NCBI GenBank assembly: GCA_035489575.1
Contig: DATHJY010000007.1
Coordinates: forward strand, 1,047-65,046
DNA length: 64,000 nt
DNA from: Verrucomicrobiia bacterium
Lineage (GTDB): Bacteria > Patescibacteriota > Saccharimonadia > Saccharimonadales > JAGQNK01
Direction: 5' to 3'
The translations under genes and the position numbers were made by a program. The notes under the pieces are model-generated. The model ran no database searches and was not told the DNA's origin. It worked only from the letters and a program-made list of their open reading frames with translations. Position 1 is the first letter of the stretch. Each line of letters begins with the position of its first letter. This document shows, piece by piece, positions 8,905-56,623 of this stretch.

Positions 8905-10797
8905 CTAAGCCAGGACTGCCTTAATTCGGCGTACACCTGCGCTACTGGCTTCTTCTTTGGTGATTTTGAATTTCTTGCCGTCTTCAAAGAGTTGGAGCGT
9001 GTGGTCGACGTGGGGACCACCACAGATCTCAAAGCTAAAGGGTTTGTCTGCGCCGTCAGCAATCATCTTGTATACCTTGACCGTGTCACCGTAGCGGTCG
9101 CCAAACTGGCCCAAGGCGCCCTTTTCTTCACGCGCGACTTTTGTCGGGTATTCTTCCCAAGATACTTTGAGGTCTTTGGCGATCTGCTCGTTCACGATTT
9201 TCTCTACTTGGTCCAGCTGTTCCCGTGTTACTTTTTCGGGATGGCTAAAGTCAAAACGTAGGCGCTCTTCGGTAATATTGCTGCCGCGCTGAATGACATG
9301 ATCACCCAATACTTCGCGTAAGGCCTGGTACATCAGGTGCGTGGCGGTGTGGTATTTCTTGTGCTGCAGGGTTTGTCCGCCCAGGCCACCCTTGAAGGTG
9401 CCTTTGGCGGCCGTCTGTGAACGCTCGCGCTGTTCTTTCATTTTGGCGTCAAACTCTTTCTGCCACTCAGCAGAGACTTCGATACCCTGCATGGCCGCCT
9501 CTTCTACACTGAGCTCTAATGGAAAGCCGTAGGTATCATAGAGCGTAAAGATATGGCTGCCATCAAGCTTGCCAGCGCCGCCCATTTTTTGCAGTTCTTT
9601 TACGCCCTTGCGAAGGGTTTGGCGAAAGACCTTTTCTTCGCGAACCAGTATATCAACCACTTCCTGGCGCTTTTCGGCTACTTCTGGGAAGTCCTCGTGA
9701 TACAGATCGGCAATAGCGGGTACGATTTGTTCCAGGAAGTTCTGTTCGATACCCAGGTCAAAGGCAAAGCGGATAGCGCGACGCATCAGGCGACGCATAA
9801 CGTAGCCCTGCTCTTTATTGCTGGGCACCACACCGTCTACGGCCAGGAAAGTCGCGCTCCGCAAGTGATCTGCAATCACACGCATGCTGGTTGTGTGGCT
9901 ATCGTATTTTTTGCCAGACAGCTCTTCCAGCCGCTGCACAATTGGCCACATGATACTGATCTTGAACATATCGGGGCTATTAATAGCCGCCATGGCGATA
10001 CGCTCCAAGCCACCGCCAAAGTCGATGTTTTTCTTGGGCAGCTTTTCAAATCCTTGCTCGGTACGCCGATACTCCATGAGTACGTTGTTACCGATTTCTA
10101 CAAACCTGCCGCAATCGCAGTTGGGGTGACATTTTTCACCATATTCGGGATTGTGATCTACAAAATCAAACTCATAAAATATTTCGGTCGAGGGACCGCC
10201 CGGCTCACCCGGGGGCATGTCACTAATTTTGCCATTCCGGCACCACCAATTTTTGGCAGCATCATAAGCAAAGATACGCTGGCCAGGCTGCATGCCAGTT
10301 GCCGCGGCGTTTTCCTCGGACCCTAGGTCGGCCTCGGTGGCGTCGATGCCCTTAGCCTGGAATAGTTTTTTCCAGATGTCGGCAGACTCGGTGTCTTTAG
10401 GAATAGAAAACTCTTCACTACCAATAAAAGTAGTTACATAGAGTTTCTGCGGATCTAGCCCCACCACATCTGTGTAGAATTCAAAAATCCAAGGTAATTG
10501 CTCGGCCTTAAAATAATCCCCGAGTGACCAGTTGCCCAGCATCTCGAAGAAAGTATCGTGACGATTATCACCCACTTCTTCTATGTCTTGTACGCGAATA
10601 ACAGTTTGGCTGTCTACCAGTTTGGTGCCCTGTGGGTGCTCCTCGCCCAACAAATACGGGACCAGCGGCTGCATGCCGGAGCCCGTGAATAATGTAGTTG
10701 GGTCGTTTTGTGGCACCAGAAGTGCCCGCGGAATAACGGCGTGACCGCGTTCTTTGAAGAATTCAAGGTAGGCTTTTCTGATTTCTTGGGCATTCAT
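8905..10797 (-). CDS. alaS: alanine--tRNA ligase, short form (catalytic, tRNA-binding and editing domains; no C-Ala domain)
   Basis: MNAQEIRKAYLEFFKERGHAVIP...FTGSGMQP N-terminus and the HTATHLM editing motif; ends GGPHV...GVRRIKAVLA. Start at 10797; the track ORF extension to 11337 is antisense to a GC-rich ORF. Confidence 0.9.
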   Translation of the reverse strand: MNAQEIRKAYLEFFKERGHAVIPRALLVPQNDPTTLFTGSGMQPLVPYLLGEEHPQGTKLVDSQTVIRVQDIEEVGDNRHDTFFEMLGNWSLGDYFKAEQLPWIFEFYTDVVGLDPQKLYVTTFIGSEEFSIPKDTESADIWKKLFQAKGIDATEADLGSEENAAATGMQPGQRIFAYDAAKNWWCRNGKISDMPPGEPGGPSTEIFYEFDFVDHNPEYGEKCHPNCDCGRFVEIGNNVLMEYRRTEQGFEKLPKKNIDFGGGLERIAMAAINSPDMFKISIMWPIVQRLEELSGKKYDSHTTSMRVIADHLRSATFLAVDGVVPSNKEQGYVMRRLMRRAIRFAFDLGIEQNFLEQIVPAIADLYHEDFPEVAEKRQEVVDILVREEKVFRQTLRKGVKELQKMGGAGKLDGSHIFTLYDTYGFPLELSVEEAAMQGIEVSAEWQKEFDAKMKEQRERSQTAAKGTFKGGLGGQTLQHKKYHTATHLMYQALREVLGDHVIQRGSNITEERLRFDFSHPEKVTREQLDQVEKIVNEQIAKDLKVSWEEYPTKVAREEKGALGQFGDRYGDTVKVYKMIADGADKPFSFEICGGPHVDHTLQLFEDGKKFKITKEEASSAGVRRIKAVLA

Positions 10798-10845
10798 GGC
10801 ATGCATTATAACAGAGGTGAACAAAACTAGCCAATCAGACAAATA

Positions 10846-10874
10846 TTGATTTGTATATATTTTTATGTTATAAT
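10846..10874 (+). promoter_or_regulatory. sigma70-type promoter of cassette C1
   Basis: TTGATT (10846-10851), 17 nt, then TGtTATAAT (TATAAT at 10869-10874). Confidence 0.5.
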
Positions 10875-10962
10875 AGCAGAGCATGTGACTAGGGTGAAAA
10901 CTCGTTACCTGCGCCATTGACGCTGCAATCTCCCACAAGCCTCCAACCCAAGGAGACACCCC

Positions 10963-11394
10963 ATGTCCGACATTTCCAGCTCCCCCGTGGTCATCCGGCA
11001 TACCGACCTCGGCACCTACGTCGTCACGACCCCCGAGGACTTCGACTGCAACGACCCCTCCGCCAAGTGGGCGATCGACAAGGTCAACGCGGTGCTGAAC
11101 TTCCTGGCCCAGGCCGAGCCCCTCCTGCGTGACACCATGCAGGTCCCCCTGGTCGACGGCCAGCCCCCGCGAGGCACCCGTGCGCTCACCTACGGCGAGT
11201 CCTTCATGACGGACTACACGCTGGTGCACCACGACAACGGTGTGCACAAGCTGCTCATCAACATCGTGGTGTCCATGCCGACCATCAACGCCGCGGCGTA
11301 TCACGCAGTGGCCGTACTGACGCGCCACGCCCTGCATGGCGCAACGTCGCTCAACCAGCTGCTGATCAACGGCCTCCAGCTGATGAGCGCCTAG
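10963..11394 (+). CDS. cassette C1: GC3-rich hypothetical protein (143 aa)
   Basis: AAGGAGA SD at 10950-10956. 18 of the first 20 codons end in G/C, against 10 of 20 for the adjacent alaS. No recognisable domain. Confidence 0.7.
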   Translation: MSDISSSPVVIRHTDLGTYVVTTPEDFDCNDPSAKWAIDKVNAVLNFLAQAEPLLRDTMQVPLVDGQPPRGTRALTYGESFMTDYTLVHHDNGVHKLLINIVVSMPTINAAAYHAVAVLTRHALHGATSLNQLLINGLQLMSA

Positions 11395-11405
11395 GGGCCA
11401 TGATC

Positions 11406-11439
11406 GGGGCGAGCACTTCCACCATAAGGTGCTCGCCCC
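11406..11439 (+). terminator. GC hairpin 3' of C1
   Basis: GGGGCGAGCAC pairs with GTGCTCGCCCC 12 nt after the stop, followed by a C-run, a pyrimidine tract and TTATTTTTATT (to ~11497). Confidence 0.4.
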
Positions 11440-11559
11440 TCAGGCCTGCCCCCGCTCCGTCTCTGTCCGCCTATTGTTCTGTCTATTATTTTTATTCCAC
11501 GCTTAAAAAGTGATTATTTTAGCAGCTGTACTAAACCACCAGTATTATAGTTTTCGATT

Positions 11560-11940
11560 ATGGATACACTTATACCCCGAGACCGCTCCTCTTCACCAGC
11601 CCAAGACCTGTCTTTTCCCTTTCGGGTAGATGACGATGGTCTACATCTAGACCGGACAGAGGCCCAGCTCGTTTACGACGATCTGACCGATTCACGTATA
11701 AATGGTAACGACGCCCTTCTGGGGCATTTGCATACCGACCTTCAGGGTGCGCTAGAGGCTGATGAACTCCCTGATGCGCTTAGCCTCAGCAGAGAGCACA
11801 TTGTTGGGCTAAAGATATATTACGGCGAAATCGCTAACCAGATGGATCGCGCCGAACACAGGGGTGTCCGAGTCTACGGGCGCTACGTCACGATACTATC
11901 TGGCCTGATCCCACTGCCTTCCCCCGACGAAGTATCATAG
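11560..11940 (+). CDS. hypothetical acidic protein (126 aa), intermediate GC
   Basis: ORF between C1 and C2 on the same strand, with no recognisable domain. Confidence 0.5.
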   Translation: MDTLIPRDRSSSPAQDLSFPFRVDDDGLHLDRTEAQLVYDDLTDSRINGNDALLGHLHTDLQGALEADELPDALSLSREHIVGLKIYYGEIANQMDRAEHRGVRVYGRYVTILSGLIPLPSPDEVS

Positions 11941-11953
11941 TTCTTCCTGTGAA

Positions 11954-11982
11954 TTGATTTAAAACTAATTTTATGCTATAAT
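11954..11982 (+). promoter_or_regulatory. sigma70-type promoter of cassette C2
   Basis: TTGATT (11954-11959), 17 nt, then TGcTATAAT (11977-11982). Confidence 0.5.
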
Positions 11983-12171
11983 AATATAGTTAGCGTCTCT
12001 GGTATTTCTTGAGTCTCTAGCACTTTTATAACAGACAGAACGATATGATCCAGTTGAGCAGCAGGCCCGCTTTTACCATAAAAGTGAGTGTGCTGCTCAA
12101 CTGGCATCTTTTGGCAACCCAGCCAACAAGCAGCCGCTGACATCCTGCCCACCCCAAAGAATTGAGGCCTC

Positions 12172-12615
12172 ATGCCCACCGAACAACTCACCACCCTGCG
12201 CCGGATCGACACCCCTACGGTGCGGATCTCCCTGATGAGCAAGACCAAGAAGGAAGTCAACCCGGACGACCTGCCCGACTGGCTCGTAAGGCAGCTCGAC
12301 ACCCTGGAGCGGTTCCTGCGGCAGGTCGCACCCTACCTGGGAACGACCGACGACGATGAGGTCCGCACCTTCTCCTCGCCGCAGGCCATCCAGCCATGCT
12401 CGAACTACAACGGCTTCATCACGCTGCGTGATCCGGACAGCGACTTCCCCAAGTCCGAGGCCGAGGTGCATGTCGATGTGGAGCTGCCCTACGAGTACCA
12501 CGACAGCTTCGTCCCCCTCGTGTTCAGCGTCTGCAAGATGGCTCAAGACCACGTGGGTGGCACCTTCGGCTTCGTCGGCTTCGTCGTGAGCCAGATCCAC
12601 CGCTACGGCAAGTAG
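12172..12615 (+). CDS. cassette C2: GC3-rich hypothetical protein (147 aa), distant paralog of C1
   Basis: GC3-rich ORF. It shares a W-x3-(K/Q)-x5-FL-x-Q-x2-P-x-L segment with C1 (DWLVRQLDTLERFLRQVAPYL versus KWAIDKVNAVLNFLAQAEPLL). Confidence 0.7.
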   Translation: MPTEQLTTLRRIDTPTVRISLMSKTKKEVNPDDLPDWLVRQLDTLERFLRQVAPYLGTTDDDEVRTFSSPQAIQPCSNYNGFITLRDPDSDFPKSEAEVHVDVELPYEYHDSFVPLVFSVCKMAQDHVGGTFGFVGFVVSQIHRYGK

Positions 12616-12631
12616 CCACTCACGGTAACCA

Positions 12632-12665
12632 GGGGCGGGCGCCTACCATCATTGGCGCTCGCCCC
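12632..12665 (+). terminator. GC hairpin 3' of C2
   Basis: GGGGCGGGCGCC pairs with GGCGCTCGCCCC, followed by a C-run, pyrimidine tract, CTGTCT box and T-run. Confidence 0.4.
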
Positions 12666-12719
12666 ACGGCGTGCCTTTTTGCCCCCTTGTTGTCCGTTCT
12701 GTCTGTTATTTTTTATTAC

Positions 12720-13904
12720 TTACCGTGGCGAAATGCGAATAATCTTGTCCTGGCTGCTGCCATTATCGGTGGTTAGATACAGCTCTTCATTTGGGCCCAT
12801 AACTGCACTACGCAGCCGGCCAAATTCGCCCTCGAACAGTGTTTGCTGGGACACTACTTTGTCATTGATTATTTCCAGCAAGCGCACCTGCTTGTCCTTA
12901 AGGACCGCCATGGCCAAGCGACCATTGAAGTCCTTCCACTTAGCGCCAGAGACAAAGGTCATACCAGAGGGTGCGATAGTAGTCTCGCCCGAGTTCCACA
13001 CAGCATCCACGGCATCTGGAAACTTGGCCTTGTCTGTCATGGGAAAGTTCTCGTCGTAAGATGGCGGACCAGGACTCCACCCCATATTGCCTTTGATTAG
13101 TTTGTTCACCTCATCCTCCCGGTCCACGCCATGCTCTACGCTATAGCCATACACACCACCACGCGGCACCTGGTACATAGCCAACCCCTGTATATTGCGG
13201 TGCCCGTAGTTATAAATACGTGGGTCAAATGCACCGCCCAGATTATCCGAGACTGGCTTGCCGTCGCGGTCCACCCGCAACACCTTGCCAGACAGACTCT
13301 TTGGATCTTGCGGATTGGTGTAAATAGCTGAGTCACCGGTGCCTATCCATAGATTGCCATCGGCCCCAAACCGTGGACGACACCCCGAGTGACGTCGATT
13401 GGGCGTCTGTGGCGTAACCGGGTACGACTTGATGCCCGTCACAATATCTACCTTGTCAGTCAGACCGGTAACGTCAGCATTTACTTTCCAGCGGCTCACC
13501 CGAATATCTGGACGGGTATCGTAGCAGGCATAGATGTAGCGATTGTCTTTGAACTGGGGATCTATCGCCAAGCCCAATAGACCGCCCTCGCCCACAGCGT
13601 ATACATCTGGTAGTTTGTACACAATGGCTTTTTGCCCCTGCGCTAGCTTGCTAATGGTGCCCGCCCGTTCGGTAAATAGCATGGTGTCGTCGGGCAGAAA
13701 GGCCACATCCCAGACATTGTTCAGCTTATCCAGCACGATCTGGCGCTGCAGATCAGGGGCGCCCAATTTGCCTTCCTGAACCATCTGGGCGTCGTCGACC
13801 GCAGGGGCCAGCGCCTGGCGCACACGCACAGTCAGCCACAGGGCCACGCCTATGGCAAGTACACCGATGCCCAAGAGGAGCAACGTCCCACGCCTATTCT
13901 TCAT
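12720..13904 (-). CDS. PQQ-dependent sugar (glucose/sorbosone) dehydrogenase-like beta-propeller, secreted
   Basis: Signal/TM N-terminus MKNRRGTLLLLGIGVLAIG and YliI/GSDH-like motifs (HSGCRPRFGADGNLWIGTGD, YNYGHRNIQGLA). Confidence 0.75.
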   Translation of the reverse strand: MKNRRGTLLLLGIGVLAIGVALWLTVRVRQALAPAVDDAQMVQEGKLGAPDLQRQIVLDKLNNVWDVAFLPDDTMLFTERAGTISKLAQGQKAIVYKLPDVYAVGEGGLLGLAIDPQFKDNRYIYACYDTRPDIRVSRWKVNADVTGLTDKVDIVTGIKSYPVTPQTPNRRHSGCRPRFGADGNLWIGTGDSAIYTNPQDPKSLSGKVLRVDRDGKPVSDNLGGAFDPRIYNYGHRNIQGLAMYQVPRGGVYGYSVEHGVDREDEVNKLIKGNMGWSPGPPSYDENFPMTDKAKFPDAVDAVWNSGETTIAPSGMTFVSGAKWKDFNGRLAMAVLKDKQVRLLEIINDKVVSQQTLFEGEFGRLRSAVMGPNEELYLTTDNGSSQDKIIRISPR

Positions 13905-13976
13905 ACCTCTATGGTACCACGCCTCATAACTCAACAGCCCATCCCATATTCATCACCCTTTCCAAACCGCTCTCTC

Positions 13977-14023
13977 GCTCATTTCAGGGTCGAACCCTGA
14001 AACAGGGTTCGACCCTGAAATGA
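13977..14023. repeat. REP-like palindromic element (copy 1)
   Basis: CTCATTTCAGGGTCGAACCCTG, AAA, then CAGGGTTCGACCCTGAAATGAG: a perfect 22-bp inverted repeat. Related copies occur at 58734-58797. Confidence 0.8.
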
Positions 14024-14057
14024 GGACTCTGGATGAGGATCTCGCATAATATGGGTA

Positions 14058-14825
14058 TTATTTGATGATGAAGACTCCGAGTAGTGGCGAATGATCAGAG
14101 GGAGAGCGCGGCAGAACGTTGAACTCCTCTAAGTGCAGCTCGCCGTGTTTTGTCCAAAGTATATTGTCGTAGTTAGCAAGAGCAATCCGCCACTTTTGGC
14201 CATTCCAGCGCCAGGTGGGGTTTCGCAGCGAACCAGTGCGTCGCCCAAGGTGCTGGGGCATGCGAAGCCACGGTGCCATATATTTTGTTTCGTTAAAGTC
14301 ACCACCAATTATCACGCTCTTATGCGCGACGCTTTCCAGCAGCTTTTCGTAAGTTCGGCGGTGCTTAACATGCGTGGACCAGTTCATAAAGAACAAGGCA
14401 GCCAGATAATTTACGACGATGGCTACATCTTCTCCGCCGAATCGCAGGTGTGCCTCTATGGCTTTTACGTGGTAGCCTTGGTAGCCGCGCGCTTTGTTGG
14501 CCTGCGTATCCGGCCCCAGCCGGTGATCAACTATTTTGGTGGGCTTTTGTTTGGTTACCAGTGCGCTACCAATCATCCACTGATCTGACATAGGGCTAAA
14601 CGGTGCAAAGTGCGTTTTGTACCCCTGCTTCTTGAAATAGTCCAGCACCGGGGAGGCGTTGGTCTGACGATGGACCAGCACCTCATTTAGCCCAAATACG
14701 TCAGGGTCGTAGGCTTTTATAAAGTGGTCAAATTTTGCCTGCAGCTTGGAACCGTCGTCACGCCGGCCACTCTGTACCTGCTCCCAGATATTCCAAAAAA
14801 CAACAGTTACCTGTGTGTTTGCCAT
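14058..14825 (-). CDS. endonuclease/exonuclease/phosphatase (EEP) family protein
   Basis: VVFWNIW near the N-terminus, IIGGDFNE, and SDHSPLLGVF near the C-terminus. Start at MANTQVT (14825). Confidence 0.75.
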   Translation of the reverse strand: MANTQVTVVFWNIWEQVQSGRRDDGSKLQAKFDHFIKAYDPDVFGLNEVLVHRQTNASPVLDYFKKQGYKTHFAPFSPMSDQWMIGSALVTKQKPTKIVDHRLGPDTQANKARGYQGYHVKAIEAHLRFGGEDVAIVVNYLAALFFMNWSTHVKHRRTYEKLLESVAHKSVIIGGDFNETKYMAPWLRMPQHLGRRTGSLRNPTWRWNGQKWRIALANYDNILWTKHGELHLEEFNVLPRSPSDHSPLLGVFIIK

Positions 14826-14874
14826 GCAAATAACTATATCAAGTACAAAGCGCGACATGCATGATTGTCCAAAC

Positions 14875-14903
14875 TTGCAAAAAGTAGTTTTATATGCTAA
14901 AAT
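14875..14903 (+). promoter_or_regulatory. sigma70-type promoter of cassette C3
   Basis: TTGCAA (14875-14880), 17 nt, then TGcTAAAAT (14898-14903). Confidence 0.5.
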
Positions 14904-15062
14904 AGTTTTATCTCTATCAGAGGCTACGTCTCGTTAGAGTACCTTTATAAGCAGACAGGATCCTGTGGTCGGGTGTGAAATAAGCCTATCAACTATAGTG
15001 ATAGTTTTATTTCACATTCGACCAACCCCGACACGGGCACATGCCCGACACCAAGGAGAGAC

Positions 15063-15485
15063 ATGCTCCAGACCCTAACCCAGACGGCCAAGAACGGCGC
15101 GGACATCGCCATGCGACTGCTGGCGCCTTACGGCCTCGACATCGACTTCCGGAAGACCAGCTTCGGCTGCATCCTGTTCATCCTCGCAGAGAGGAAGTGG
15201 CACGCCGAGTGGAACCTGGCCCAGCAACGGGTCGAGGAACACTCCGAGCGAGTGAAGAGCCTGGAGGGCACCATCGGTGGCTTCGCACAGCACTTCAGCG
15301 GCAACGCCAGCTGGCATGCGATCAGGACCACCTTCATGGGTCATGACCTCAGCCTGTTCATCGCCATGGCCGAGGGCTACCACACGAACGCCGAACAGCT
15401 GGACTACCTCCTGCACTGGCTGAGCAACCCCCAGGCCGAGACCAGCCGCCTCGAGGAAGTCCTCAGGACGACGCGCCACCACTAG
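15063..15485 (+). CDS. cassette C3: GC3-rich hypothetical protein (140 aa)
   Basis: AAGGAGAG SD at 15053-15060 and a GC3-rich ORF. Distantly similar to C4b (KW-x-W/A, GH-E/D-L and DYLL-x-x-L segments in the same order). Confidence 0.7.
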   Translation: MLQTLTQTAKNGADIAMRLLAPYGLDIDFRKTSFGCILFILAERKWHAEWNLAQQRVEEHSERVKSLEGTIGGFAQHFSGNASWHAIRTTFMGHDLSLFIAMAEGYHTNAEQLDYLLHWLSNPQAETSRLEEVLRTTRHH

Positions 15486-15638
15486 CGGCCACTGACCCCG
15501 CAAGTCGACAGGACTGGACATAGGTTCAGGACACTGCTGGCTGCTGCCCGTGCTCCCCCTTTGTCCAGTTCCTGTCTGCTTGTTTTTCTTTTACGCCCCT
15601 CTGGGCTATTTTTTATACTATGCCCAGATGAAAGCGGG

Positions 15639-15666
15639 TTGATTTTTTATAATTTTATGGTAATGT
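15639..15666 (+). promoter_or_regulatory. promoter of cassette C4
   Basis: TTGATT (15639-15644), 16 nt, then TGgTAATGT. Confidence 0.4.
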
Positions 15667-15858
15667 ATACGCAACTCTAAGGTGCCGCTTGTGGCACCTC
15701 TATTAGAGTTCTTTTACAAGCAGACAGATGATGGATGAGTAGCAAGGCTATCTTTGCCCGGTAGTTTTGCTACTCATCCATGTCAAACGACAAAGGTTAG
15801 ATGCGACAATCGGTTGCGTCTAGAGTCCATGGACTCTGAGTTCCTTTTGGAGGCCATC

Positions 15859-16311
15859 ATGAAAGAAGGCGTCAAGAACTTCCTCCGTACCCTCTACAAC
15901 ACCCTCCGCACCATGCTCGACTCCACCCAGACCGAGGGCACTTCCGACCCCGAGCCCAGGCCCAACATTCCGGTTTACCGTGGCGCCCGTTGCTGCATCA
16001 GCATCGACGTGTTCGACGGCGACGAAGAACTGACGCGTCGGGCCGAGGCTTTCCTGGCCGCACTGGCCACGCATGACCTAGCCCTGGTGAACTACATAGA
16101 CCACTTCCCCGGAGGGATTCGTGTGTTCATCCGCCCCTTCCCGGGCGAGCACGATCTGGTAGTCAAGTACTACAAGCGCGGCAATTGTCTGGACCGTCGA
16201 GCCGCGACCTACCTGACCATCCTGGTCGAGGAGTTCTTCCGCGCCGACAACGTCGACGGACTGGCGATCGAACTCAGCAAGACAAGCTCCATCCCCGCAC
16301 ACATCCGCTAG
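15859..16311 (+). CDS. cassette C4a: GC3-rich hypothetical protein
   Basis: GGAGG SD at 15848-15852 precedes the ATG at 15859. An alternative in-frame ATG lies at 15829; the track start at 15754 falls inside the leader hairpin. Confidence 0.65.
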   Translation: MKEGVKNFLRTLYNTLRTMLDSTQTEGTSDPEPRPNIPVYRGARCCISIDVFDGDEELTRRAEAFLAALATHDLALVNYIDHFPGGIRVFIRPFPGEHDLVVKYYKRGNCLDRRAATYLTILVEEFFRADNVDGLAIELSKTSSIPAHIR

Positions 16312-16346
16312 TGCCGCGACACTCATTACAGACTGGAGATACCAGC

Positions 16347-16817
16347 ATGCTGGTTTCTGTCCTGAGCTTCCTGACTTGCTTCAAGGTGGAACACCTGGTC
16401 GATGAGTTCAGGAGACGGTTCGCCCCCGACCCCGAGCTCAACGTCATGGACAGCACCGCCCTCATTGGCATCGTGATCAGCTTCACCGCCGACCAGGAAA
16501 AGTGGCGCTGGCAAAGTGCCAGGCACGCAGTGCTACACCACTGCATCCGCCTACGCCGGATACACGAGGACATCCACTCCTTCCTGGAGCGCTTCGAAGA
16601 CTGCATCGGGAGTCGACCCGAGCTAGTGACGGACTACCGAGGCCACGAGCTGCGGACATGGTTCGACTGTAAGGGCGACACCGGGCTCTCCATGGCCGCC
16701 GCGGACTATCTGCTGCGAGTACTCGCCATGGTGGACGCCACCGACAAGCAACTCCGGAACGCTCTGCGCATCACCGAACTCCCCCAGGATGCCGCCATAG
16801 TGGCATCCGCGTCGTAA
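16347..16817 (+). CDS. cassette C4b: GC3-rich hypothetical protein (156 aa), second gene of the C4 unit
   Basis: GGAGA SD 7 nt upstream of the ATG, 35 nt after the C4a stop. Paralog-like to C3. Confidence 0.7.
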   Translation: MLVSVLSFLTCFKVEHLVDEFRRRFAPDPELNVMDSTALIGIVISFTADQEKWRWQSARHAVLHHCIRLRRIHEDIHSFLERFEDCIGSRPELVTDYRGHELRTWFDCKGDTGLSMAAADYLLRVLAMVDATDKQLRNALRITELPQDAAIVASAS

Positions 16818-16979
16818 CCGTAGCCCTCATGGGCCAAGCAGCAGGGCTGGACGAAGGCTCAGGATGTTGCTGGCTGATGCCGGTATCTCCCCCTTTGTCC
16901 AGTTCCTGTCTGCTTGTTTTACTTTTTATGCCACGCCCCTGTGGGCTTTTTTTATACCACCGCATAAGAAGGGGCAGGA

Positions 16980-17008
16980 TTGAATTTTATTAACTTTTAT
17001 GCTATAAA
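16980..17008 (+). promoter_or_regulatory. sigma70-type promoter of cassette C5
   Basis: TTGAAT (16980-16985), 17 nt, then TGcTATAAA (17003-17008). Confidence 0.45.
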
Positions 17009-17037
17009 ATTGATATAACGTACTCGCTTACTCCCTG

Positions 17038-19296
17038 ATGAGAAAGCTTTTTTTGTTTGCACCTTCCACTGAAGTGGACCGACAAAGGATCACGCACTTG
17101 AGGATCATCCACTCAAAGCAAAGTTTGCCCACCGAAATTGTCGGCCAGAAGTGCAACGGCTCCCTGTTCCTGGGAGGCGCACTGCCGCGGTCCGACAAGA
17201 TCAACCAGGAGCCTGCCCACTGGCGATCCGACGCCTACCGCTTTCTGGCCGAAAGGTTCGACGGCACCGTCCTGACACCCGAACGCCAAGAGGGCAGCCT
17301 GGCCTCCTACGTCAGCCAAGCCGACTGGGAGCAGGCTGCGCAGAACAGCGCAGACGTCATCTTCTACTACATGACCCGAACGGCCGACATCCTGGCCCTC
17401 AGCACCAACACCGAGGTTGGCCAGTACATCCGGTTCGGCCCCCAGCGTGTCGTGCTGTGTATTCCCGAGAACGCCGATTTGGCGATGAAGACCGAGTTCC
17501 AACAAACCGTTGCCAAAATGCAGGGCATCGAGCCGATCATCGGCCTCGAAGCCGGCCTGGAGCATGCCATCAGCCTGATCGGCGAAGGCGCCGAGCGACA
17601 TGGTGGCGAGTGCCAGGTACCCCTGTACGTATGGCGTACGCCCAGCTTCCAAGCCTGGAACAACGCCCTCAAGGCCGCCGGCAACCGGCTGGACAACTTC
17701 CACCTGGACATGACCCTCTGCCCCGTGCCAGCCTTTGTGCTGTTCTGGGCGGCAAAGGTCAGTATCTGGGTAGCCGGCGAGGAGCGTCACAAGGACAACG
17801 AGTGGGTCATTTCCCGCCCTGACATCTCGCACTGTGTGCTCGTATACCGCAAGGGACCGAAGACACACATAGTGGGTGTGCGGGAGTTTCGCAGCACTGT
17901 CCGCAACGCGGATGGCTACGTCTACGAAGCAGCGGGCGGCAGCTCTGCCAAACCCAGCCTGGACCCCATCCAGGTGGCGATCGACGAAGTTCGGGAAGAA
18001 ACCGGCCTACGGCTCCGCCCCGCGCAACTTCGCTTTGTGGCTTCCCGCCAGCTTGCAGCCACCACCACGGCACACCACGCCTACGTGACGGTTGCCGAGC
18101 TAACGGACGAGCAGTACCAGCAAGCGCTGGCCCAAGAGGGCACCTACGCCGGCGACCTGGCCGACAGCGAAATGACCGCTCTGACCGTGTCGACACTCAC
18201 CGAGCTGTTCGCCGGCGAAGAGCTGGACTGGTCCAACCTGGGCATGACCGCACAAGCGTTGCTCCAACTGGACGCCGAGCACAAGCCCAAGTACACCGTG
18301 GCCAGTTCGGCCGGCCAGACGTACGCCCTTGTCATATTGGACGCACTGACCGGCTCGGCCCTGGACACCATCCTGGGCATCATGGCCGCCGGGACCACCG
18401 TGGTCTATGCCGGACCCCAGCAGGGCAACCTCGGCTTCGAGCAACGCGTGGACATTGCGACCACACTTGGCTTGTTTGCTGACAAGCTGACCCAGCAGGG
18501 CATCGACGCCCAGTTCATCCACCTGGCCGGAGACGGCGAGGACCAGCTGAGGCGTTTGCAGGCACTGGTGGAGCCGGACAACCTGACCGTCTTCGCCTTC
18601 GTGGGCGACTACGGACTGAGTCCGGACGCAATCCGACAGGTCCAGCTGATGCGCCACCGTGGCGTCTCGGTCGTGGGCAGCTGGTGTGGCAGTACGCCGC
18701 AACCAGAGCTGTTGGTCGTGAATGGCTCGTTAGCCGCACCCGACATCGGGTATGTACCTTTTGCCAGGCAGTGGTCGCAGTCCGGCAGCGAAGTACAGAT
18801 CTGCACACCGCAGGACTGTGCCGTAGTGTCAGTCGGTCGGCTCACGCCAGCCGCCTACTACCGGTTGGCCGGATTGTTGATCGCCGGGACGCACCTCATC
18901 TACGGAGGAGCACCCGTCGACCAAGAAGCCCCCGAGGGCCGTATCCACCTGACTCGTTCGCTGAGACTGATGGCTGCCAAGCTTGGTGTTGCCGGCATCC
19001 CCGCCCGCGTCACCACGTTCGAGGAGCCAGACGTCGAGAGTCGTCGTCTGAAGTTGCTCGCGCTCGCGCAGCAACACTGCGCCCCGGTTCTGGCCTTTGT
19101 CGATGACCAAGGCTTGGCACCTGGCGTAGCCCAAGAATGTGCGTGGGCGCGCGACTGCGGCCTGCCGGTTACCGGCCTGTGGGTCGGATCGTCCGGGGGG
19201 TTCGAGCTCAGAACTCTGGGCGATGCCCTGGACGTGAACGAGGCCTCACTTCAGCCATTGGCGCAGATGCGTCAGCCAGGCCTGGTCCTGGCGTAA
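17038..19296 (+). CDS. cassette C5: GC-rich multidomain protein with a nucleoside 2-deoxyribosyltransferase-like domain, a Nudix domain and two Rossmann-like (SLOG/DUF2493-like?) repeats
   Basis: Nudix box GGSSAKPSLDPIQVAIDEVREETG (~17931-18006). The N-terminal LFLGGAL...ADVIFYYM...STNTEVGQY pattern resembles NDT/Rcl-type folds. Two similar ~140-aa C-terminal repeats each end in V(V/T)G(S/L)W. The true start is probably downstream of 17038, because the first ~20 codons are AT-rich leader. Confidence 0.65.
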   Translation: MRKLFLFAPSTEVDRQRITHLRIIHSKQSLPTEIVGQKCNGSLFLGGALPRSDKINQEPAHWRSDAYRFLAERFDGTVLTPERQEGSLASYVSQADWEQAAQNSADVIFYYMTRTADILALSTNTEVGQYIRFGPQRVVLCIPENADLAMKTEFQQTVAKMQGIEPIIGLEAGLEHAISLIGEGAERHGGECQVPLYVWRTPSFQAWNNALKAAGNRLDNFHLDMTLCPVPAFVLFWAAKVSIWVAGEERHKDNEWVISRPDISHCVLVYRKGPKTHIVGVREFRSTVRNADGYVYEAAGGSSAKPSLDPIQVAIDEVREETGLRLRPAQLRFVASRQLAATTTAHHAYVTVAELTDEQYQQALAQEGTYAGDLADSEMTALTVSTLTELFAGEELDWSNLGMTAQALLQLDAEHKPKYTVASSAGQTYALVILDALTGSALDTILGIMAAGTTVVYAGPQQGNLGFEQRVDIATTLGLFADKLTQQGIDAQFIHLAGDGEDQLRRLQALVEPDNLTVFAFVGDYGLSPDAIRQVQLMRHRGVSVVGSWCGSTPQPELLVVNGSLAAPDIGYVPFARQWSQSGSEVQICTPQDCAVVSVGRLTPAAYYRLAGLLIAGTHLIYGGAPVDQEAPEGRIHLTRSLRLMAAKLGVAGIPARVTTFEEPDVESRRLKLLALAQQHCAPVLAFVDDQGLAPGVAQECAWARDCGLPVTGLWVGSSGGFELRTLGDALDVNEASLQPLAQMRQPGLVLA

Positions 19297-19369
19297 ACGC
19301 GTTTGACGCAATCACCCGAGAGGGGGTCTTTTCGGGTCAAACCGATCTGACCTCCTCACGGGTAAATTT

Positions 19370-20425
19370 TTATACTACGATACCGCCGCCAAGCACTGTG
19401 TCTTTATCATAAATAACGGCGGACTGACCTGGAGTAATGGCCCGCACTTGCTCGTCCAAAATCAACCGTATACCCGTATCTGCCTGCTCAATTGTGCATG
19501 ACACCAATGGCGCTCGATAGCGCGTGCGCACTTGATACTTCTTATCCAAGTTTGGTTGGCCGTTTATCCAGTGCACATCTGTCAGGGCTAGCTCTTGCTT
19601 CCACAAGTTCTCATCATTCAGGTTGGTGGTCACATACACCTCGTTCTTGGCCATGTCTTTGCCGGTGACATAGTACGGCAAGCCACCACCCACGTTCAGG
19701 CCGTGGCGCTGGCCAATGGTGTAAAAAATAGCGCCGTCATGCTCGCCAATGGCTACACCATGCTGCTCTTTTATAACGCCCAGTTCGGTAGTGACATACT
19801 GGCTCAGAAAATCACGGATGCCGACCTTACCCACAAAACAAATGCCCTGGCTGTCTTTTTTCTCGGCCGTGGTCAGACCCAGCTTTTTGGCCAGTGCCCG
19901 TACCTCGGCCTTGGTTTTGTAGTCGCCAATGGGCATCAGGCTTTTTTTGAGCGCGTCCTCCGTAACTCGACATAAGAAATATGTCTGATCTTTTTCGGCA
20001 TTGGCCGCCACCAATAATTGCCCGTCTTGTATCCGAGCGTAGTGGCCTGTGGCAATCAAGTCTGCACCGTCTGCTAGGGCGGTGTCGAGGAACAACCTGA
20101 ACTTGACCTCTTGGTTACACATGATGTCTGGGTTGGGCGTACGGCCAGCCTGGTATTCGGCAATCATGTAGTCTACGACTTTTTGCTGGTACTCGACCTG
20201 GAAGTCGTACATCTTAAAGTCTATGCCCAGCTGCACCGCCACGCGCTTGGCGTCCTGGTAGTCTTCTTTCCACGGACAGGGCATACCGGGCAGGTCTTTG
20301 CTCCAGTTTTTCATGTACACGCCCACCACGTGGTAGCCCTGTTCTTTCAGCAAAGCAGCAGTAACGGAGCTATCTACTCCGCCACTCAATCCCACATAAA
20401 CAGTCTGCTTTTTCTGGGGCTTCAT
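19370..20425 (-). CDS. mnmA: tRNA 2-thiouridine(34) synthase MnmA
   Basis: VYVGLSGGVDSSV PP-loop with a full-length MnmA-like body. Confidence 0.9.
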   Translation of the reverse strand: MKPQKKQTVYVGLSGGVDSSVTAALLKEQGYHVVGVYMKNWSKDLPGMPCPWKEDYQDAKRVAVQLGIDFKMYDFQVEYQQKVVDYMIAEYQAGRTPNPDIMCNQEVKFRLFLDTALADGADLIATGHYARIQDGQLLVAANAEKDQTYFLCRVTEDALKKSLMPIGDYKTKAEVRALAKKLGLTTAEKKDSQGICFVGKVGIRDFLSQYVTTELGVIKEQHGVAIGEHDGAIFYTIGQRHGLNVGGGLPYYVTGKDMAKNEVYVTTNLNDENLWKQELALTDVHWINGQPNLDKKYQVRTRYRAPLVSCTIEQADTGIRLILDEQVRAITPGQSAVIYDKDTVLGGGIVV

Positions 20426-20506: not shown

Positions 20507-20591
20507 ATATTAGTTAGGGTCTCTCTAATACTCGATCGTTGCTCTCGACCTGACCGAGCAACCCCTACGCACCCCGAAAGAGAGGTGGACC

Positions 20592-20912: not shown

Positions 20913-21023
20913 GAACCGAAGCCACAGCTGGCCACCGAGGGGGCGATAGCCTCAAACCCTCACCGGCCATGCCTTGCTCACCCTCCATCTCTCTTTCTTT
21001 ACCTATGTGTTATACCCTAGTAT

Positions 21024-21081: not shown

Positions 21082-24000
21082 TTAGAATAGTTCGCTGTAG
21101 TTGCGGGTGAGCGTGGTGCTCCAATTGCCAGCCCTATCTTGGGTGCGCAGAAAGAAGTTATGCGAGGTGAAGAAGTTGCCGCTACCGGTATCGATGATGC
21201 CCGTGTACGTGCTGCCAGTGGTATGTGTTGCAGCCGTACCGCTGCCCTGTCCAGGGTCGGTATCAAAGTAGTATTCGACCCGGTTCACGCCTGACAGCGC
21301 ATCGGTTGCAGTGGTGCTGAAGTTTTGGCTTCCTACCACCAGGAAGAGCATTGCTGGTGTGAAGTTGCTTTGAGTGGGCGCTACTTTGTCCAGAGACACC
21401 TGGGCCGAACCGGTAGCACAGTTGCCAGCCAGGTCGCAGCTTTGGGCACTGGTGTAAGTAACGTTGGCGGCCTGCGTAGAAGCAACGGTGTTTGCTGGGT
21501 CAGTTGGCGAACCACTGCCCGTGTCAGTCGCCTGCCAGTCGATAGTTACATCGGCCTTGTGCCAGCCGTTGGCATTGGCGGGCGTACTGAGCGTCCGACC
21601 TACCACAGGCAGCGTGGCATCGTATTTAACAGTTACGCTTTGGTTGGCCGCACCACCAGCACTGGTGGCCGAGCAGAAATAGGCGTAGCTGCCGTCGGTA
21701 TTGACGGTAACTTGGGCGCAGCCCGTTTGACTAATTACGGTCGATTCGGCGTCTTGCACTGTCCAGTTTAGAGTGACCGGTGCTTTGTGCCAGCCATTGG
21801 CGTTAGGTGGTGTGCTAAAGGTATAGCTGATGACTGGTGCCGTGGTATCCAGCGGCAAGATAACTAGCTGGGTGTCGATCACCGTGCTCCAGTGGCCCAC
21901 GGCATCTTTGGCCCTGATGTGCACCGTATATGTACCGGGTGCTAGGCCGTCACCAAGGCTGGCAGTCAGTTCGTTAGCGTTCAGATTCATAGCCGTGGCG
22001 TTACCCTGGCCGGGATCGGTCCCCAGGTAGTATTCGCCAGCCGCTACACCACTAACGTTATCGGCAACAGGCACGGTAACGGTGGCATTGTTTCCTTCAA
22101 CAGCCGGATTGTTAAACCAGCTCGGGCTTCCCAGGGTTGGGCTGGTGGTGTCGTACGCAACATTGACCGGACCAGATTGTGCACTACACCCCACCTGATT
22201 GCAGGCGGACACGGTGTAGGCATAAGTGCTATCTTGGGCAAGTGCCGAATCTGTAAAGCCAGGAACGGCCGGGCTGCCCACCTCTACTCCATCACGAAAT
22301 ATCTTGAACGAGGACGCCGCTAGCACGGTGTTCCAGCCAAGCACGGGAGCACTGGCAGTGGGCGAAGGGCCAGCCAGCCCTGAAGGAACTGTGGGTACAG
22401 CGTCAGGGATCAGCGGCACCAGCACGGCTGCTGAATCAGTCATGTCCTGGCTTATGCCTGGTACATCTGTCTGATTGGCCGGTAATGAGTACCCGGCAGG
22501 TGGTGTGTTGAAATACACCAGCTTCAGTGGCACATTGGCCAAAACATCTAGTGGTACCAACCCATCACCACCCGAAGCAAGCAACCGCTGCAACGAGCCA
22601 GACAGAGAGGTCTGCAGGCCTGGCAATAGCTGGACACTCTGCGTTCCTGCGGTTGGCTGCTGGGTCATACCCACATTGACGCCCGTCGCTGGGCTGCCGT
22701 TTGGGTAGATTACTTTATATTTATACTTCACAAAGTTAACTACTAAATCTTGCGTGAGGTTACCTGTTAAATTTACCGTCGCGGCAGGACTCTGTATTCC
22801 AACAAAGCTAGAGAAGCCCGTCTGGCTATTCACGGTCACATTCACGCTGTACTGGCCGGGAAGTGCCTGCACGCTGAAAGCACCAGTCGCCGGATCGGTA
22901 TTAACCGGTGCAATACCACCAGCAGGGCCCTGCAGCTGGACACTGCCGCGCAGCGGATTGCCAGCTTGGTCTTTGAGGGTGCCCGAGTAAGTCACCGGCC
23001 CTATGAGCGTAGCCACCACTGCATCGCCATCTGTCATGTCCTGCGTGATCGCCGCAAGGTTACTGAGAGCAGGAGGGTTACCATAGCCTGGCTTGGTCCC
23101 AAAGTTTACTTGTGTAATAGGAGCGTTTGGCATCATGTCAAACGCAACAATACCGTTGGCATCGGTAGGTTGGTTTCTCTGCAGTGCGCCAGATAGCGTC
23201 ACCGTTTGTCCGGGTAACAGCTGGGTACTTTGATACGCTCCTGAGGAAAGCTGCTGAGTAATCTGTGTATCTACGCCCTGGGCGGGACTGCCGTCTGGGT
23301 ACACTACCTTGAACTTGTATTTCACAAAGTTGACCACTAGGTTCTGAGACATACTGCCCGTCAAGTCCACCACATCAGGCCCGCTCATCATGCCTACAGA
23401 GCTTGCAAACCCTATTTGGCTGTTGGCTGTTGCCACGATTCGGTACTGTCCGGCAGGAGCCTGCAGACTAAAAGCACCCGTGATTGGGTCGGTCGTAACT
23501 GGCGCAATACCACCGGCAGGACCCTGTAGCTGAACGGTACCACGCAGCGGATTGCCGGCCTGGTCTTTCAGTGTACCGGAATAGGTATATATGGGCGTAG
23601 GTTCGGCTGCAAGCTGGTAGACAAACAAGTCATTTAGCTGGTTGGTGTCACCGGGCTTTGGACCCACCGGATACTGACTGTAATAGTCTTGGGCAAAATA
23701 TGAAAAGCTATTGCCGGTGGCTGACATAGTGCCGCCCTCTGCGTTAGGCACGTACACCGTACTGGTGTTGGTCGTACGGTCATAGCGAAAAATATTGCTG
23801 TTATCTGCCAGCAAGTAGCGGCCATCTGCGGAAAAGTCAGTAGCGTTATTCATGCCGTTCACAACCGTCAGCGCAGAAGTCTGACGATCCAACAACGTAA
23901 CCTTGCCTCCCGTGCCCGTTGTGCACTGCTGGGATGAAAAGGCTACCCAACGGCCATCGTCAGAAATAGTTCCGCCCGCATAAGTTGACCCCATGGTCGC

Positions 24001-50388: not shown

Positions 50389-50634
50389 TCAGGCGAGCAC
50401 CTTGGCGGTCACCGGCTGGCCGGCGGCCATGGCACCGAAGTTGAACTCGTCGTTCTTGACGCCCTCCACGAAGGCATCCCACTCGCCGCGGGTGAAGGTG
50501 AGGGTCGGACCCTGCCGATCCTTCGTGTCGCGCACGACGACGTTGCCGTCGACGACAGCTGTCTCCACGCACTGCATGCCGTCGCTGAACGAACTCGTCA
50601 GCCAGTCGATGGTGCTGTCCTGGTGCTGTGACAT
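50389..50634 (-). CDS. cassette C8: DUF397 domain protein (GC3-rich)
   Basis: DWLTSSFSDGMQCVETAVVDGNVVVRDTKDRQGPTLTFTRGEWDAFVEGVKNDEF matches the DUF397 pattern (W..SS.S....CVE.A....V.VRDSKD..GP.L.F....W..F..G.K.GEF). AGGAGAGG SD. Confidence 0.8.
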   Translation of the reverse strand: MSQHQDSTIDWLTSSFSDGMQCVETAVVDGNVVVRDTKDRQGPTLTFTRGEWDAFVEGVKNDEFNFGAMAAGQPVTAKVLA

Positions 50635-51053: not shown

Positions 51054-51185
51054 AAACATATTCTCAGGTGGTCGCACTTGCGTATCATTTGAGCACTTTG
51101 ACATGTCAGGCAAATCGTTTGGGATATGGATACGAGCCATCTTGTGATGTTTCATATCCATACCCCAACCGAGAAACGAGATTCC

Positions 51186-51909: not shown

Positions 51910-52081
51910 GCTGGCCTCGGCCTCTTCTCTCGTTCCGCCTGACATGTCATATCACTTATTCGAAAACCACAGCCACCCACCTGGTGGTATTTTTATATAT
52001 AAAATTAGACCCCCATCCCTGCATCTTCCATACCATGAGGCACGAAAGAAGAGAAATGGGGGCCAGGGCCTCTTGTCGGAA

Positions 52082-52549: not shown

Positions 52550-52680
52550 GATGACCTCCAAGGTCACAGAGTAAGTACGGATAGAAAAAAACGCACTGTA
52601 TGCGCTTATCTCTAGCCGTACTATCTGACAAGAAGCTGTAAAGGTACCCTGGAGCAAAAAGCTCTACAAAAGTAGAATAT

Positions 52681-52709
52681 ATTATACTATTTATATTGTA
52701 TTGAGTCAA
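52681..52709 (-). promoter_or_regulatory. sigma70 promoter for the 52082-52549 gene
   Basis: Minus strand reads TTGACT, 17 nt, TATAAT. Confidence 0.5.
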
Positions 52710-53009
52710 CAACGAGTCCAGGCCAACTCTTTTGGCCAGACGGTCGCGCTTGAGCTACAATGTGCATACGCTAACCGTCTAACAAAGACAAAGACAGCGC
52801 TCGGACCAGACCTCGGAAAGACCGTCACCGTAGAAAAAATAGTCCGTAACCTTGCCGCCAAAGACTACGACGCAATCATAGCCCAGTAAGCAGTTCGTGC
52901 TCCGTAGAAAGCATCGTGAATTGTGTCTTGCACACACTACCTCTTGACGAAACCAGCAATTCCATGTGATGCTGAGGCATCCCTTGCCGTTGACACCTTC
53001 GGAGGAACA

Positions 53010-53501: not shown

Positions 53502-53587
53502 AAATCAGTGCAACGTGCCAGGAGCGTGCGAATGTTACGCGGCAGCTTAGCCGGGCATTCGCCGCTCACTGGTACTATTTATTTTGC

Positions 53588-53621
53588 AAAAAAGAACCCC
53601 ATACACAGGGGTTCTTTTTTT
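53588..53621. terminator. bidirectional intrinsic terminator
   Basis: AAAAAAGAACCCC-loop-GGGGTTCTTTTTTT. Confidence 0.65.
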
Positions 53622-53725
53622 GAACAAGCATCATACAGTAAGTGTTGACAAGACACTAAGGTTGCGTTAGTATCAGAGCAATACTTACTTAGTGTATTTA
53701 GAACAATAACTAATCAAACAGGACA

Positions 53726-55782: not shown

Positions 55783-55824
55783 CCAGCAGCCGTGAAGCCA
55801 AGAACTTCACTGAGTCCTGTCACC

Positions 55825-55996: not shown

Positions 55997-56078
55997 CATA
56001 AGCGTCTCGTTCAAAATCCGAGCGAGGCTTTTGCAGTGGGGAGGCGTTAAAACCACCCCATATACAAGGAGCATGTTC

Positions 56079-56507: not shown

Positions 56508-56623
56508 CGAGTCACAGCAATACGGGTTTGGCTCGGACTGTCTGTCTTTTTATGGCAGTCCGGGTCACACTCGATCGAACATATCCCTTACTCCCCACTG
56601 CCCTTAACCTGCCTTAAACATTT

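Follow-up and report, generated by a model that had tools for sequence, protein, structure and literature searches.

A duplicated 34-nt trailer element in GC-rich gene cassettes of a Saccharibacteria chromosome: a predicted terminator hairpin that may also pair with the mRNA leader

Pairing between the untranslated regions (UTRs) at the 5' and 3' ends of one bacterial mRNA is documented for few genes, icaR and those of the hok and aapA toxin families. In the icaR mRNA of Staphylococcus aureus, this pairing blocks translation initiation and creates a site for RNase III (PMC3868564), and in the hok/sok and Helicobacter aapA/IsoA systems the full-length mRNA owes to it a stable, inert state that lasts up to the trimming of the 3' end (PMC6733600). 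The variable region of T4-like phages contains promoter-stem-loop motifs (PeSLs), in which a terminator stem-loop and a strong sigma-70-type promoter are placed together between small uncharacterised genes (PMC2839356, PMC4122927). Here we describe an element that shares features with both kinds of system, found in a 64,000-nt stretch (the window; contig DATHJY010000007.1, numbered from its first letter) of a Saccharibacteria (TM7, Saccharimonadales) chromosome. Two neighbouring gene cassettes, C3 and C4, carry an identical 34-nt sequence in their 3' trailers, within a longer alignable module. We consider it somewhat better than an even chance that this module is a structured 3' UTR: a terminator hairpin whose 3' arm also closes the mRNA with its leader.

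The cassettes are small GC-rich units (A, C, C3, C4a/C4b, E, F, G, H and I) scattered between resident genes, most of which lie on the opposite strand. The G+C content at third codon positions (GC3) is 0.76-0.92 in the cassette open reading frames (ORFs) and 0.53-0.63 in the resident genes. Most cassettes have a sigma-70-like promoter upstream, often of the form TTGATT-17 nt-TATGyTATAAT (repeat family D1; promoter scan).

The 34-mer, CTCCCCCTTTGTCCAGTTCCTGTCTGCTTGTTTT, occurs exactly twice in the whole window, both times on the forward strand (Table 1). No third copy was found there with up to three mismatches allowed, and 100 shuffles gave no match; none is expected by chance. The alignable module is about 120 nt long, extending 5' to ~15497/16830 and ending with the T-run at 15614/16953; it runs from GCTGGCTG(C/A)TGCC before the core to ACGCCCCT(C/G)TGGGCT, a T-run and ATAC after it. 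The original prediction had reported two identical 34-nt cores with alignable flanks, and we recover them at exactly the same coordinates, with a module start even further 5'. Copy-to-copy identity is 76% over the left arm and loop, 100% over the 34-mer, 73% from there to where the T-run ends, a stretch with a 6-nt indel, and 53% in the downstream promoter region. By comparison, the C3 and C4b ORFs are 53% identical in nucleotides (shuffled ORFs, 48%), and their products are distant paralogs with 26% identity over 102 residues (pairwise E = 1e-6); the trailer is indeed better conserved than the coding sequence, as had been proposed. The repeat is real and no assembly artefact, because Logan contigs built with k=31 stop at 15582 and begin at 16891, 30 nt into each copy, and because the ENA, JGI and Logan assembly contigs match the window at 100% identity over every part of the region that they span; the source samples are ERZ27268082, SRR7026570 and JGI 3300020034. 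Extension past the window edges added 1-2.7 kb of sequence.

Diverged trailer copies stand behind two more GC-rich ORFs, at 12680-12719 (repeat family D2) and at 11472-11489, the latter recognised by eye and through an 18-nt match of repeat family D20. The trailer element of cassette C is 60% identical to a reference 40-mer of the module core. In the sequence that we searched, every copy found lies directly 3' of a GC-rich ORF, which is not the placement of a generic dispersed repeat. Near-identical DNA was not found in E. coli, phage or plasmid collections, a 22-mer from the module was not found in viral contigs, and a 20-mer had a single chance match in JGI metagenomes, in an unrelated AT-rich context. 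No Rfam family or tRNA was matched in the window. Among relatives, neither the module nor the cassette proteins were found in 80 mnmA loci, and a covariance model built from three module copies recovered no further copies in 1.09 Mb (59 of these 80 loci). A targeted full-text search for UTR or stem-loop elements of Saccharibacteria gave nothing comparable.

Folded alone with RNAfold, each trailer gives a long hairpin, and the 34-mer makes up its 3' arm. The left arm of the C3 hairpin consists of a poorly conserved basal part (15500-13) and a conserved distal part, CTGGACATAGG (15514-24). In the predicted structure, the distal part forms stem S1 with 15558-68, a short stem S2 joins 15529-31 to 15554-56, an inner stem S3 joins 15535-41 to 15546-52, and the basal part pairs with 15570-83. 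This last segment, which we call X', has an alternative partner in the leader, segment X at 14947-60. The hairpins end at 15583 and 16917 and are followed at once by the U-tracts TTTTTCTTTT and TTTTACTTTTT; behind these come the second, smaller hairpins and their T-runs. The module therefore combines a stable hairpin with an immediate U-rich tract, and it sits between the stop codons (ending at 15485 and 16817) and the next promoter-like sites (~15639 and ~16980); the downstream promoter starts 25-50 nt past the module. This predicted anatomy is that of a tandem intrinsic terminator, from which termination itself would be expected.

In its 3' half, TCCTGTCTGCTTGT, the 34-mer is perfectly complementary to the C3 leader segment ATAAGCAGACAGGA, and 12 bases of this half complement the C4 leader segment ACAAGCAGACAG. 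As in icaR, complementary segments thus lie in the 5' and 3' UTRs of one mRNA, with 12-14 perfect pairs in C3 and C4 that are specific to the cognate partners. X is always found between the promoter and the ribosome-binding site and X' before the U-rich tail; both therefore lie inside the transcript. Unlike in icaR, the 3' partner here doubles as an arm of a terminator hairpin, and the design belongs to a whole set of cassettes rather than to one gene. A further difference concerns the Shine-Dalgarno sequence, which the pairing covers, as in icaR, in cassette F and in an operon of another genome (L014, below), but not in C3 and C4, where 100-130 nt separate X from the ribosome-binding site downstream of it. 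Blocking X from pairing costs 11.2 kcal/mol in the predicted fold of C3 and only 3.8 kcal/mol in that of C4, so that the local full-length hairpin is a near-equal alternative in C4. Shuffled controls pair with the leaders as well as the C-rich 5' half of the 34-mer does, and on this ground we rejected the idea that this half acts as an anti-Shine-Dalgarno element. The role of the 34-mer as a hairpin arm, its complementarity to the 5' leader and the U-tracts behind it are three features that the original prediction had missed.

The same pairing recurs in other cassettes with other sequences. The longest perfect complement between a leader and its own trailer measures 15 nt in C, 12 nt in C3, 12 nt in C4, 13 nt in H and 11 nt in I, and cassette F forms 14 pairs if wobble pairs are included. 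Non-cognate combinations reach 9 nt at most, except for C3 with C4, which have the module in common. Cognate matches of 11-15 nt are thus seen in five of nine cassettes, against a control frequency of 1.6% for matches of at least 11 nt in a set of 2685 ordinary ORFs from related loci. From one group to the next (C/C3/C4, H, I and F) the paired sequences are unrelated, yet complementary within each, and where C differs from C3/C4 by an extra G in the leader, an extra C in the trailer mirrors it. We folded the whole predicted transcripts of six units (0.5-1.3 kb), computing the minimum-energy structure and pair probabilities. The leader-trailer helix was present in the minimum-energy fold of all six, with a mean pair probability of 0.97-0.99 in five and 0.73 in F, and the predicted folds of C, C3, H, I and F lose 11-23 kcal/mol when X is blocked. 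A common layout emerges, consisting of the promoter, a 5'-terminal hairpin, a short U-rich spacer, X and a long second hairpin (20-27 bp, with its own sequence in each unit), followed by the ribosome-binding site and ORF(s), the 3' hairpin, X' and a U-rich tail. As a separate observation, the X'-like element behind cassette A (11472-11489) complements the leader of cassette C (12028-12045; 18 nt, 89%) and not its own leader; the A trailer element and the C leader element bracket ORF B, whose GC3 of 0.52 is resident-like.

Other organisms provide a second view of the element. As single protein queries, C3 and C4a matched only themselves. A profile of C3 and C4b searched against 1.84 billion representative proteins found four further members, all on one 49-kb contig of JGI metagenome 3300078620, and a six-member profile added none. 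The C3/C4b family thus has six known members, all in these cassette arrays, without homologues outside the lineage; its GC3 is 0.8-0.9, against a genome value near 0.6. The predicted structure of C4b (predicted local distance difference test score, pLDDT, 77) has a mixed alpha/beta fold without a significant match in the PDB. A 1007-nt contig from another JGI sample (L090) encodes a 274-residue family member, P0003, which is a tandem duplication of the family domain and is 23-32% identical to the C3/C4b proteins. Its leader reads TTCTTTCACAAGCAGACAGGAT and then a long hairpin, and its trailer AGCAAGCGATAGGACTGAACAAAGG-TTCAGGACGTTGCTGGCTTCGCCGGTG-CTCCCCCTTTGTTCAGTCCT, where the contig ends. In these sequences, leader and trailer are far better conserved than the proteins that they flank. 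Relative to the window, CTGGAC in the left arm has become CTGAAC and GTCCAG in the right arm GTTCAG, which is one compensatory change from G:C to A:U. When the two window copies and the L090 copy are aligned, 96.8% of cells pair, against 38-53% with the partner slid. The contig starts and ends inside the leader and trailer motifs, suggesting that these are repeated in that genome too.

An independent, predicted case of leader-trailer pairing is offered by the genome of another member of the Saccharimonadales (L014). There, a 3.1-kb GC-rich operon (11395-14535, minus strand) is inserted between mnmA and alaS, on the opposite strand. Its products are about 12 tiny predicted membrane proteins, and every gene has a ribosome-binding site of the ACGGAGG type. 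The full-transcript fold joins 32 leader nucleotides, part of the ribosome-binding site among them, to the trailer immediately past the last stop codon. GC-rich islands next to mnmA in two further loci (L027 and L031) were examined as cassettes and rejected, as they encode low-complexity proteins on the other strand.

The structures look more like RNA than DNA. Among 22 leader and trailer hairpins, the sense strand is more stable than the antisense strand in 17, and G.U pairs number 39 in the sense strand against 16 in the antisense strand. Such a bias in stability and in G.U pairs would be expected of RNA structure but not of DNA cruciforms or protein-binding palindromes. The proposal that selection or copying acts on the trailer itself, as an RNA or DNA site, therefore gains support from the hairpin-terminator fold, the copy in a second organism, the leader pairing and the strand asymmetry.

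Table 1. Coordinates of cassette ORFs, control elements and paired segments in the window (X, leader segment; X', trailer partner).
Feature	Positions	Strand	Basis
ORF C3, 140 aa, GC3 0.89, orphan family	15063..15485	+	
ORF C4a, 150 aa, GC3 0.80, first gene of C4 unit	15859..16311	+	
ORF C4b, 156 aa, GC3 0.80, distant paralog of C3	16347..16817	+	
C3 promoter, sigma-70-like: TTGCAA, 17 nt, TAAAAT, TG upstream	14875..14903	+	promoter consensus scan
C3 5'-terminal hairpin 1 (CTCTA...TAGAG), just past putative transcription start	14912..14940	+	folds
C3 leader X, ATAAGCAGACAGGA, complement of 15570-83	14947..14960	+	complement search, folds, blocking test
C3 leader hairpin 2, 26-nt arms, 85% complementary, directly 3' of X	14966..15024	+	inverted repeat I5, folds
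C3 trailer left (5') arm	15500..15524	+	RNAfold, alignment, pair counts
C3 trailer inner branch	15525..15552	+	fold, alignment, pair counts
34-mer copy 1, 3' arm	15553..15586	+	exact search, folds, pair counts
First terminator tail, U-tract TTTTTCTTTT, directly behind C3 hairpin	15583..15592	+	sequence, fold
Second small hairpin GCCC-CTCT-GGGC, then T-run; kept in copy 2	15595..15614	+	sequence, fold, alignment
C4 putative promoter: TTGATT, 16 nt, TG-n-TAATGT, 25 nt past C3 module	15639..15666	+	read from sequence; under consensus-scan threshold
C4 5'-terminal hairpin 1	15673..15710	+	folds
C4 leader X, ACAAGCAGACAG, complement of 16906-17	15716..15727	+	complement search, folds, blocking test
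C4 leader hairpin 2, 20-nt arms, 90% complementary	15731..15781	+	inverted repeat I8, folds
C4b trailer left arm, CAAGCAGCAGGGCTGGACGAAGG	16835..16857	+	fold, alignment, pair counts
34-mer copy 2, 3' arm; X' = 16906-17	16887..16920	+	exact search, folds
Copy 2 U-tract, small hairpin (CCACG/TGTGG), T-run	16917..16953	+	terminator scan (16931-16944 terminator-like), alignment
Cassette A trailer, X'-like TATTGTTCTGTCTATTAT and T-run	11472..11489	+	repeats I13, D20, complement search
Cassette C leader X, ATAACAGACAGAACG, diverged member of C3/C4 leader family	12028..12042	+	inverted repeat I21, complement search, folds
Cassette C trailer X', CGTTCTGTCTGTTAT, then T-run	12695..12709	+	repeats D2, I21, complement search, folds
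Cassette F leader segment over Shine-Dalgarno, just before GTG start; pairs 20984-20997	20576..20589	+	inverted repeat I17, folds
Cassette F trailer partner, TCCATCTCTCTTTC	20984..20997	+	folds
Cassette H leader X, TGACATGTCAGGC	51099..51111	+	complement search, folds
Cassette H trailer X', GCCTGACATGTCA	51937..51949	+	complement search, folds
Cassette I leader X, GCAGTGGGGAG	56033..56043	+	complement search, folds
Cassette I trailer X', CTCCCCACTGC	56591..56601	+	complement search, folds

Our preferred interpretation builds on the observed repeat and complementarities, their recurrence with other sequences, their preservation in another organism and the asymmetry between strands. We envision that the nascent 34-mer would pair with the left arm ~30-55 nt upstream, giving a branched hairpin with a main stem of ~23-26 bp and an inner stem-loop; the U-tract, the second small hairpin and the T-run would complete a tandem terminator, leaving each cassette insulated from the next promoter. 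In the finished transcript, X' would swap to the leader segment X (AyAAGCAGACAGG), displacing the poorly conserved base of the hairpin. With X positioned between the 5'-terminal hairpin and the long second hairpin, the X:X' helix would close the mRNA into a panhandle, and both ends of the message would be held in structure, which may stabilise the message, gate its translation or processing, or both. The invariance of the 34-mer could then reflect a 5' half that keeps the distal hairpin and a 3' half that has to fit two alternative partners. If the hairpin alone were under selection, equal constraint on its two arms would be expected; between copies, the left arm with the loop is only 76% identical and the right arm 100%, which fits a second partner for the right arm. 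Since the 5' half has no partner in the leader beyond chance, gene conversion or protein recognition is expected to contribute, and occasional gene conversion between copies 1.3 kb apart may add to the invariance.

What the closed form might do is suggested by analogy with icaR, hok and aapA. In C3 and C4 the ribosome-binding site is left uncovered, hence we favour end protection or stability over direct translational control there. The likeness to hok and aapA lies in the predicted closed, full-length form with paired 5' and 3' ends, and in co-transcriptional local hairpins that would later give way to a long-range helix. Unlike in those systems, the long-range helix does not sequester the ribosome-binding site of C3 and C4, and the products are soluble-looking proteins of 140-156 residues (up to 752) instead of small hydrophobic toxic peptides. 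An antisense RNA gene, as in a type I toxin-like system, was not evident, and no antisense promoter was called opposite C3/C4.

Several points weigh against this interpretation. The promoters, the 3' ends and likewise the long-range helix are predicted, and thermodynamic folds of RNAs of 0.7-3 kb are unreliable and ignore co-transcriptional folding and ribosomes. The comparison covers only three module copies and one compensatory pair, too few for statistics. The complement search revealed no convincing pairing of cassettes A, E and G to their own leaders, and in C3 and C4 the distance between X and the ribosome-binding site leaves no evident direct control of translation. Finally, no leader partner beyond chance exists for the 5' half of the 34-mer, which is just as invariant, so that double pairing leaves part of the 34 nt unexplained.

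Other explanations must be weighed against these data. The module could act at the DNA level, as a portable terminator-promoter junction that provides recombination homology in the manner of PeSLs, with the 34 nt left by recent gene conversion or unequal crossing-over; recombination at such junctions, possibly after natural transformation, would insert, delete or swap GC-rich ORFs. The weak homology that runs on through the next promoter speaks for such a role, as do the assembly breaks at leader and trailer repeats, here and in the contig of the relative, and the presence of other numbers and kinds of cassettes at the same hot spots of a related genome. The cassettes fill an interval, mnmA-alaS, that measures 8.6 kb here and 7.5 kb in L014, against 50-120 nt in many relatives (loci L002-L081), and which we therefore regard as an insertion hot spot in Saccharimonadia. 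Efficient RecA-type recombination requires a minimum length of about 34 nt, close to that of the repeat. PeSLs themselves are described as motifs that unite a promoter with a stem-loop, border ORFans and bring about shuffling (PMC2839356), and they resemble our modules in combining a sigma-70-like promoter with a terminator stem-loop between ORFans (repeat families D1 and D3) and in being better conserved than the genes they flank. They differ in their T4-like phage setting, as our modules lie on a bacterial chromosome and have no match in the phage collection; the stem-loop here is also much longer, and leader-trailer complementarity is absent from the PeSL description. As a full account, the DNA role seems unlikely: a conversion tract would have to be very short, with identity falling to 73-76% right beside the 34-mer, the contigs of ENA, JGI and Logan agree with the window over the cassettes without polymorphism or an excised circle, and neither the sense-strand bias in G.U pairs and stability nor the cassette-specific complementarity in H, I, F and L014 is accounted for. 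It is nonetheless compatible with the RNA reading, and the conserved modules may also serve as DNA homology arms for cassette turnover, which the hot spot and the other cassette sets in relatives fit. On our reading the element joins an intrinsic terminator to a 5'-3' UTR interaction and possibly has a PeSL-like part in shuffling. A broader version, which we think quite unlikely, is a dedicated expression-and-capture scaffold at fixed hot spots (a conserved promoter, 5' hairpin and X upstream, X' and the terminator downstream) into which GC-rich foreign or host (actinobacterial) genes are slotted, the same parts acting as homology arms in DNA and as an end-protected loop in RNA; in a more extreme form, the closed, GC3-rich messages would be adapted for use in a GC-rich host cell.

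That the module is just a long intrinsic terminator, duplicated with its ancestral gene and only incidentally complementary to the leader, would suit the hairpin and U-tract anatomy, the site between stop codon and next promoter, and the paralogy of C3 and C4b, because of which the trailers probably share ancestry. We judge it decidedly unlikely, as it predicts equal constraint on two arms that are 76% and 100% identical, leaves the excess of cognate matches over control ORFs to coincidence, with no non-cognate pair of that length but C3-C4, and does not explain why the leader segment itself is conserved across organisms. Recognition in trans, of a small RNA derived from the 3' UTR or of a site for an RNA-binding protein or a nuclease such as RNase III, would explain why the entire 34-mer is invariant, including the half without a leader partner, and why stems of 20-26 bp in leaders and trailers are near-perfect; the icaR pairing likewise makes an RNase III substrate (PMC3868564). 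With neither an Rfam match nor a small-RNA target found, we hold this to be highly improbable. Least probable of all is site-specific recombination or transposition, either with the hairpin as an attC-like site or with X and X' as terminal inverted repeats of a non-autonomous cassette or invertible segment. The imperfect, bulged hairpin that stands at each cassette's 3' end does resemble integron attC sites, X/X' bracket each cassette, and content varies between relatives at a fixed locus. However, the hairpin base (GCAAGT...GCTTGT in C3, CAAGCAG...CTGCTTG in C4b) lacks RYYYAAC and GTTRRRY cores, its sole GTT being followed by TTTT, and one bulged U is missing from the L090 copy. The cassettes have promoter-like sites of their own and housekeeping genes stand between them, and no integrase, invertase or transposase family is recorded for the called genes in the parts of the window covered (~1-49300 and 52569-64000). 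Because X/X' differ among the C/C3/C4, H, I and F groups, no single enzyme could recognise them all, which also distinguishes them from miniature inverted-repeat transposable elements, and no target-site duplications or flanking direct repeats are visible by eye. With the strand asymmetry indicating RNA, we rejected the attC, transposon-end and inverton readings. The cassettes also recall phage morons, single genes or small operons of deviant G+C content with their own promoter and terminator among resident genes; unlike morons, they lie outside any prophage, and their control regions are common to the units, conserved and able to pair with each other.

If the structured-UTR interpretation is right, 5'-3' UTR pairing would here be the common design of a cassette set in an uncultivated, host-dependent lineage, fused to a terminator, and would offer a testable model for how Patescibacteria express and stabilise newly acquired or fast-evolving genes. 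The units would also be a natural source of promoter, leader and terminator parts for genetic work on these organisms, whose tools are still young. The leader and trailer repeats explain assembly breaks in such genomes, and their motifs give a sequence handle for variable cassettes and insertion hot spots in metagenomes.

The assignment of the window rests on MnmA, which is up to 78% identical to that of many Saccharibacteria genomes, and on the gene order ORF341-ORF304-mnmA-alaS, common to the window and those genomes; ATP synthase genes are also among the neighbours. A protein identical to C4a is listed at NCBI as a hypothetical protein on a 254-kb contig of a 'Verrucomicrobiae bacterium' metagenome-assembled genome. 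This bin label looks wrong, as marker identity and gene order place the DNA in Saccharibacteria. In the window region 8905-20425, the 8.6-kb mnmA-alaS interval holds A, B and C, genes for a sugar dehydrogenase and a nuclease/phosphatase-family protein, and C3, C4 and E. The 49-kb JGI contig shares this framework: alaS and the dehydrogenase gene are separated there by three small ORFs, and the dehydrogenase gene and mnmA by seven, making ten cassettes. In the window, the ORF304-mnmA interval has also gained a 1263-residue surface-type protein and cassette F.

Some individual genes deserve mention. Cassette G (50389-50634, minus strand) encodes a DUF397 protein (Pfam E = 1.4e-18, GC3 0.89) and has long hairpins in leader and trailer; the DUF397 family is typical of Actinobacteria, and its presence in Saccharibacteria fits gene flow from GC-rich hosts. 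Cassette E (17038-19296, plus strand) encodes a protein of 732-752 residues with a nucleoside 2-deoxyribosyltransferase-like domain and a Nudix-like motif, the N-terminal 400 residues being 37% identical to gp334 of Bacillus phage G. A 1096-residue protein (5171-8461, plus strand) fuses a WhiB-like domain to a DEAD/ResIII/SNF2-type helicase (precomputed Pfam hits); the WhiB family occurs mainly in Actinobacteria and in their phages. Between the nuclease/phosphatase-family and dehydrogenase genes lies a perfect 22-bp palindrome (13978-14024; CTCATTTCAGGGTCGAACCCTG, 3 nt, CAGGGTTCGACCCTGAAATGAG). Its sole Rfam matches are to microRNAs, by chance; it is probably a terminator. The 1263-residue ORF (21082-24873, minus strand) has a 28-nt indel in the JGI assembly (L088), where it is called as two genes of 667 and 596 residues; this may represent strain-level frameshift variation in a surface protein. 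The mechanically called alaS ORF (8905-11337, minus strand, 810 residues) is ~540 nt too long upstream and runs antisense through cassette A. The real start lies near 10795, and public gene calls are over-extended likewise.

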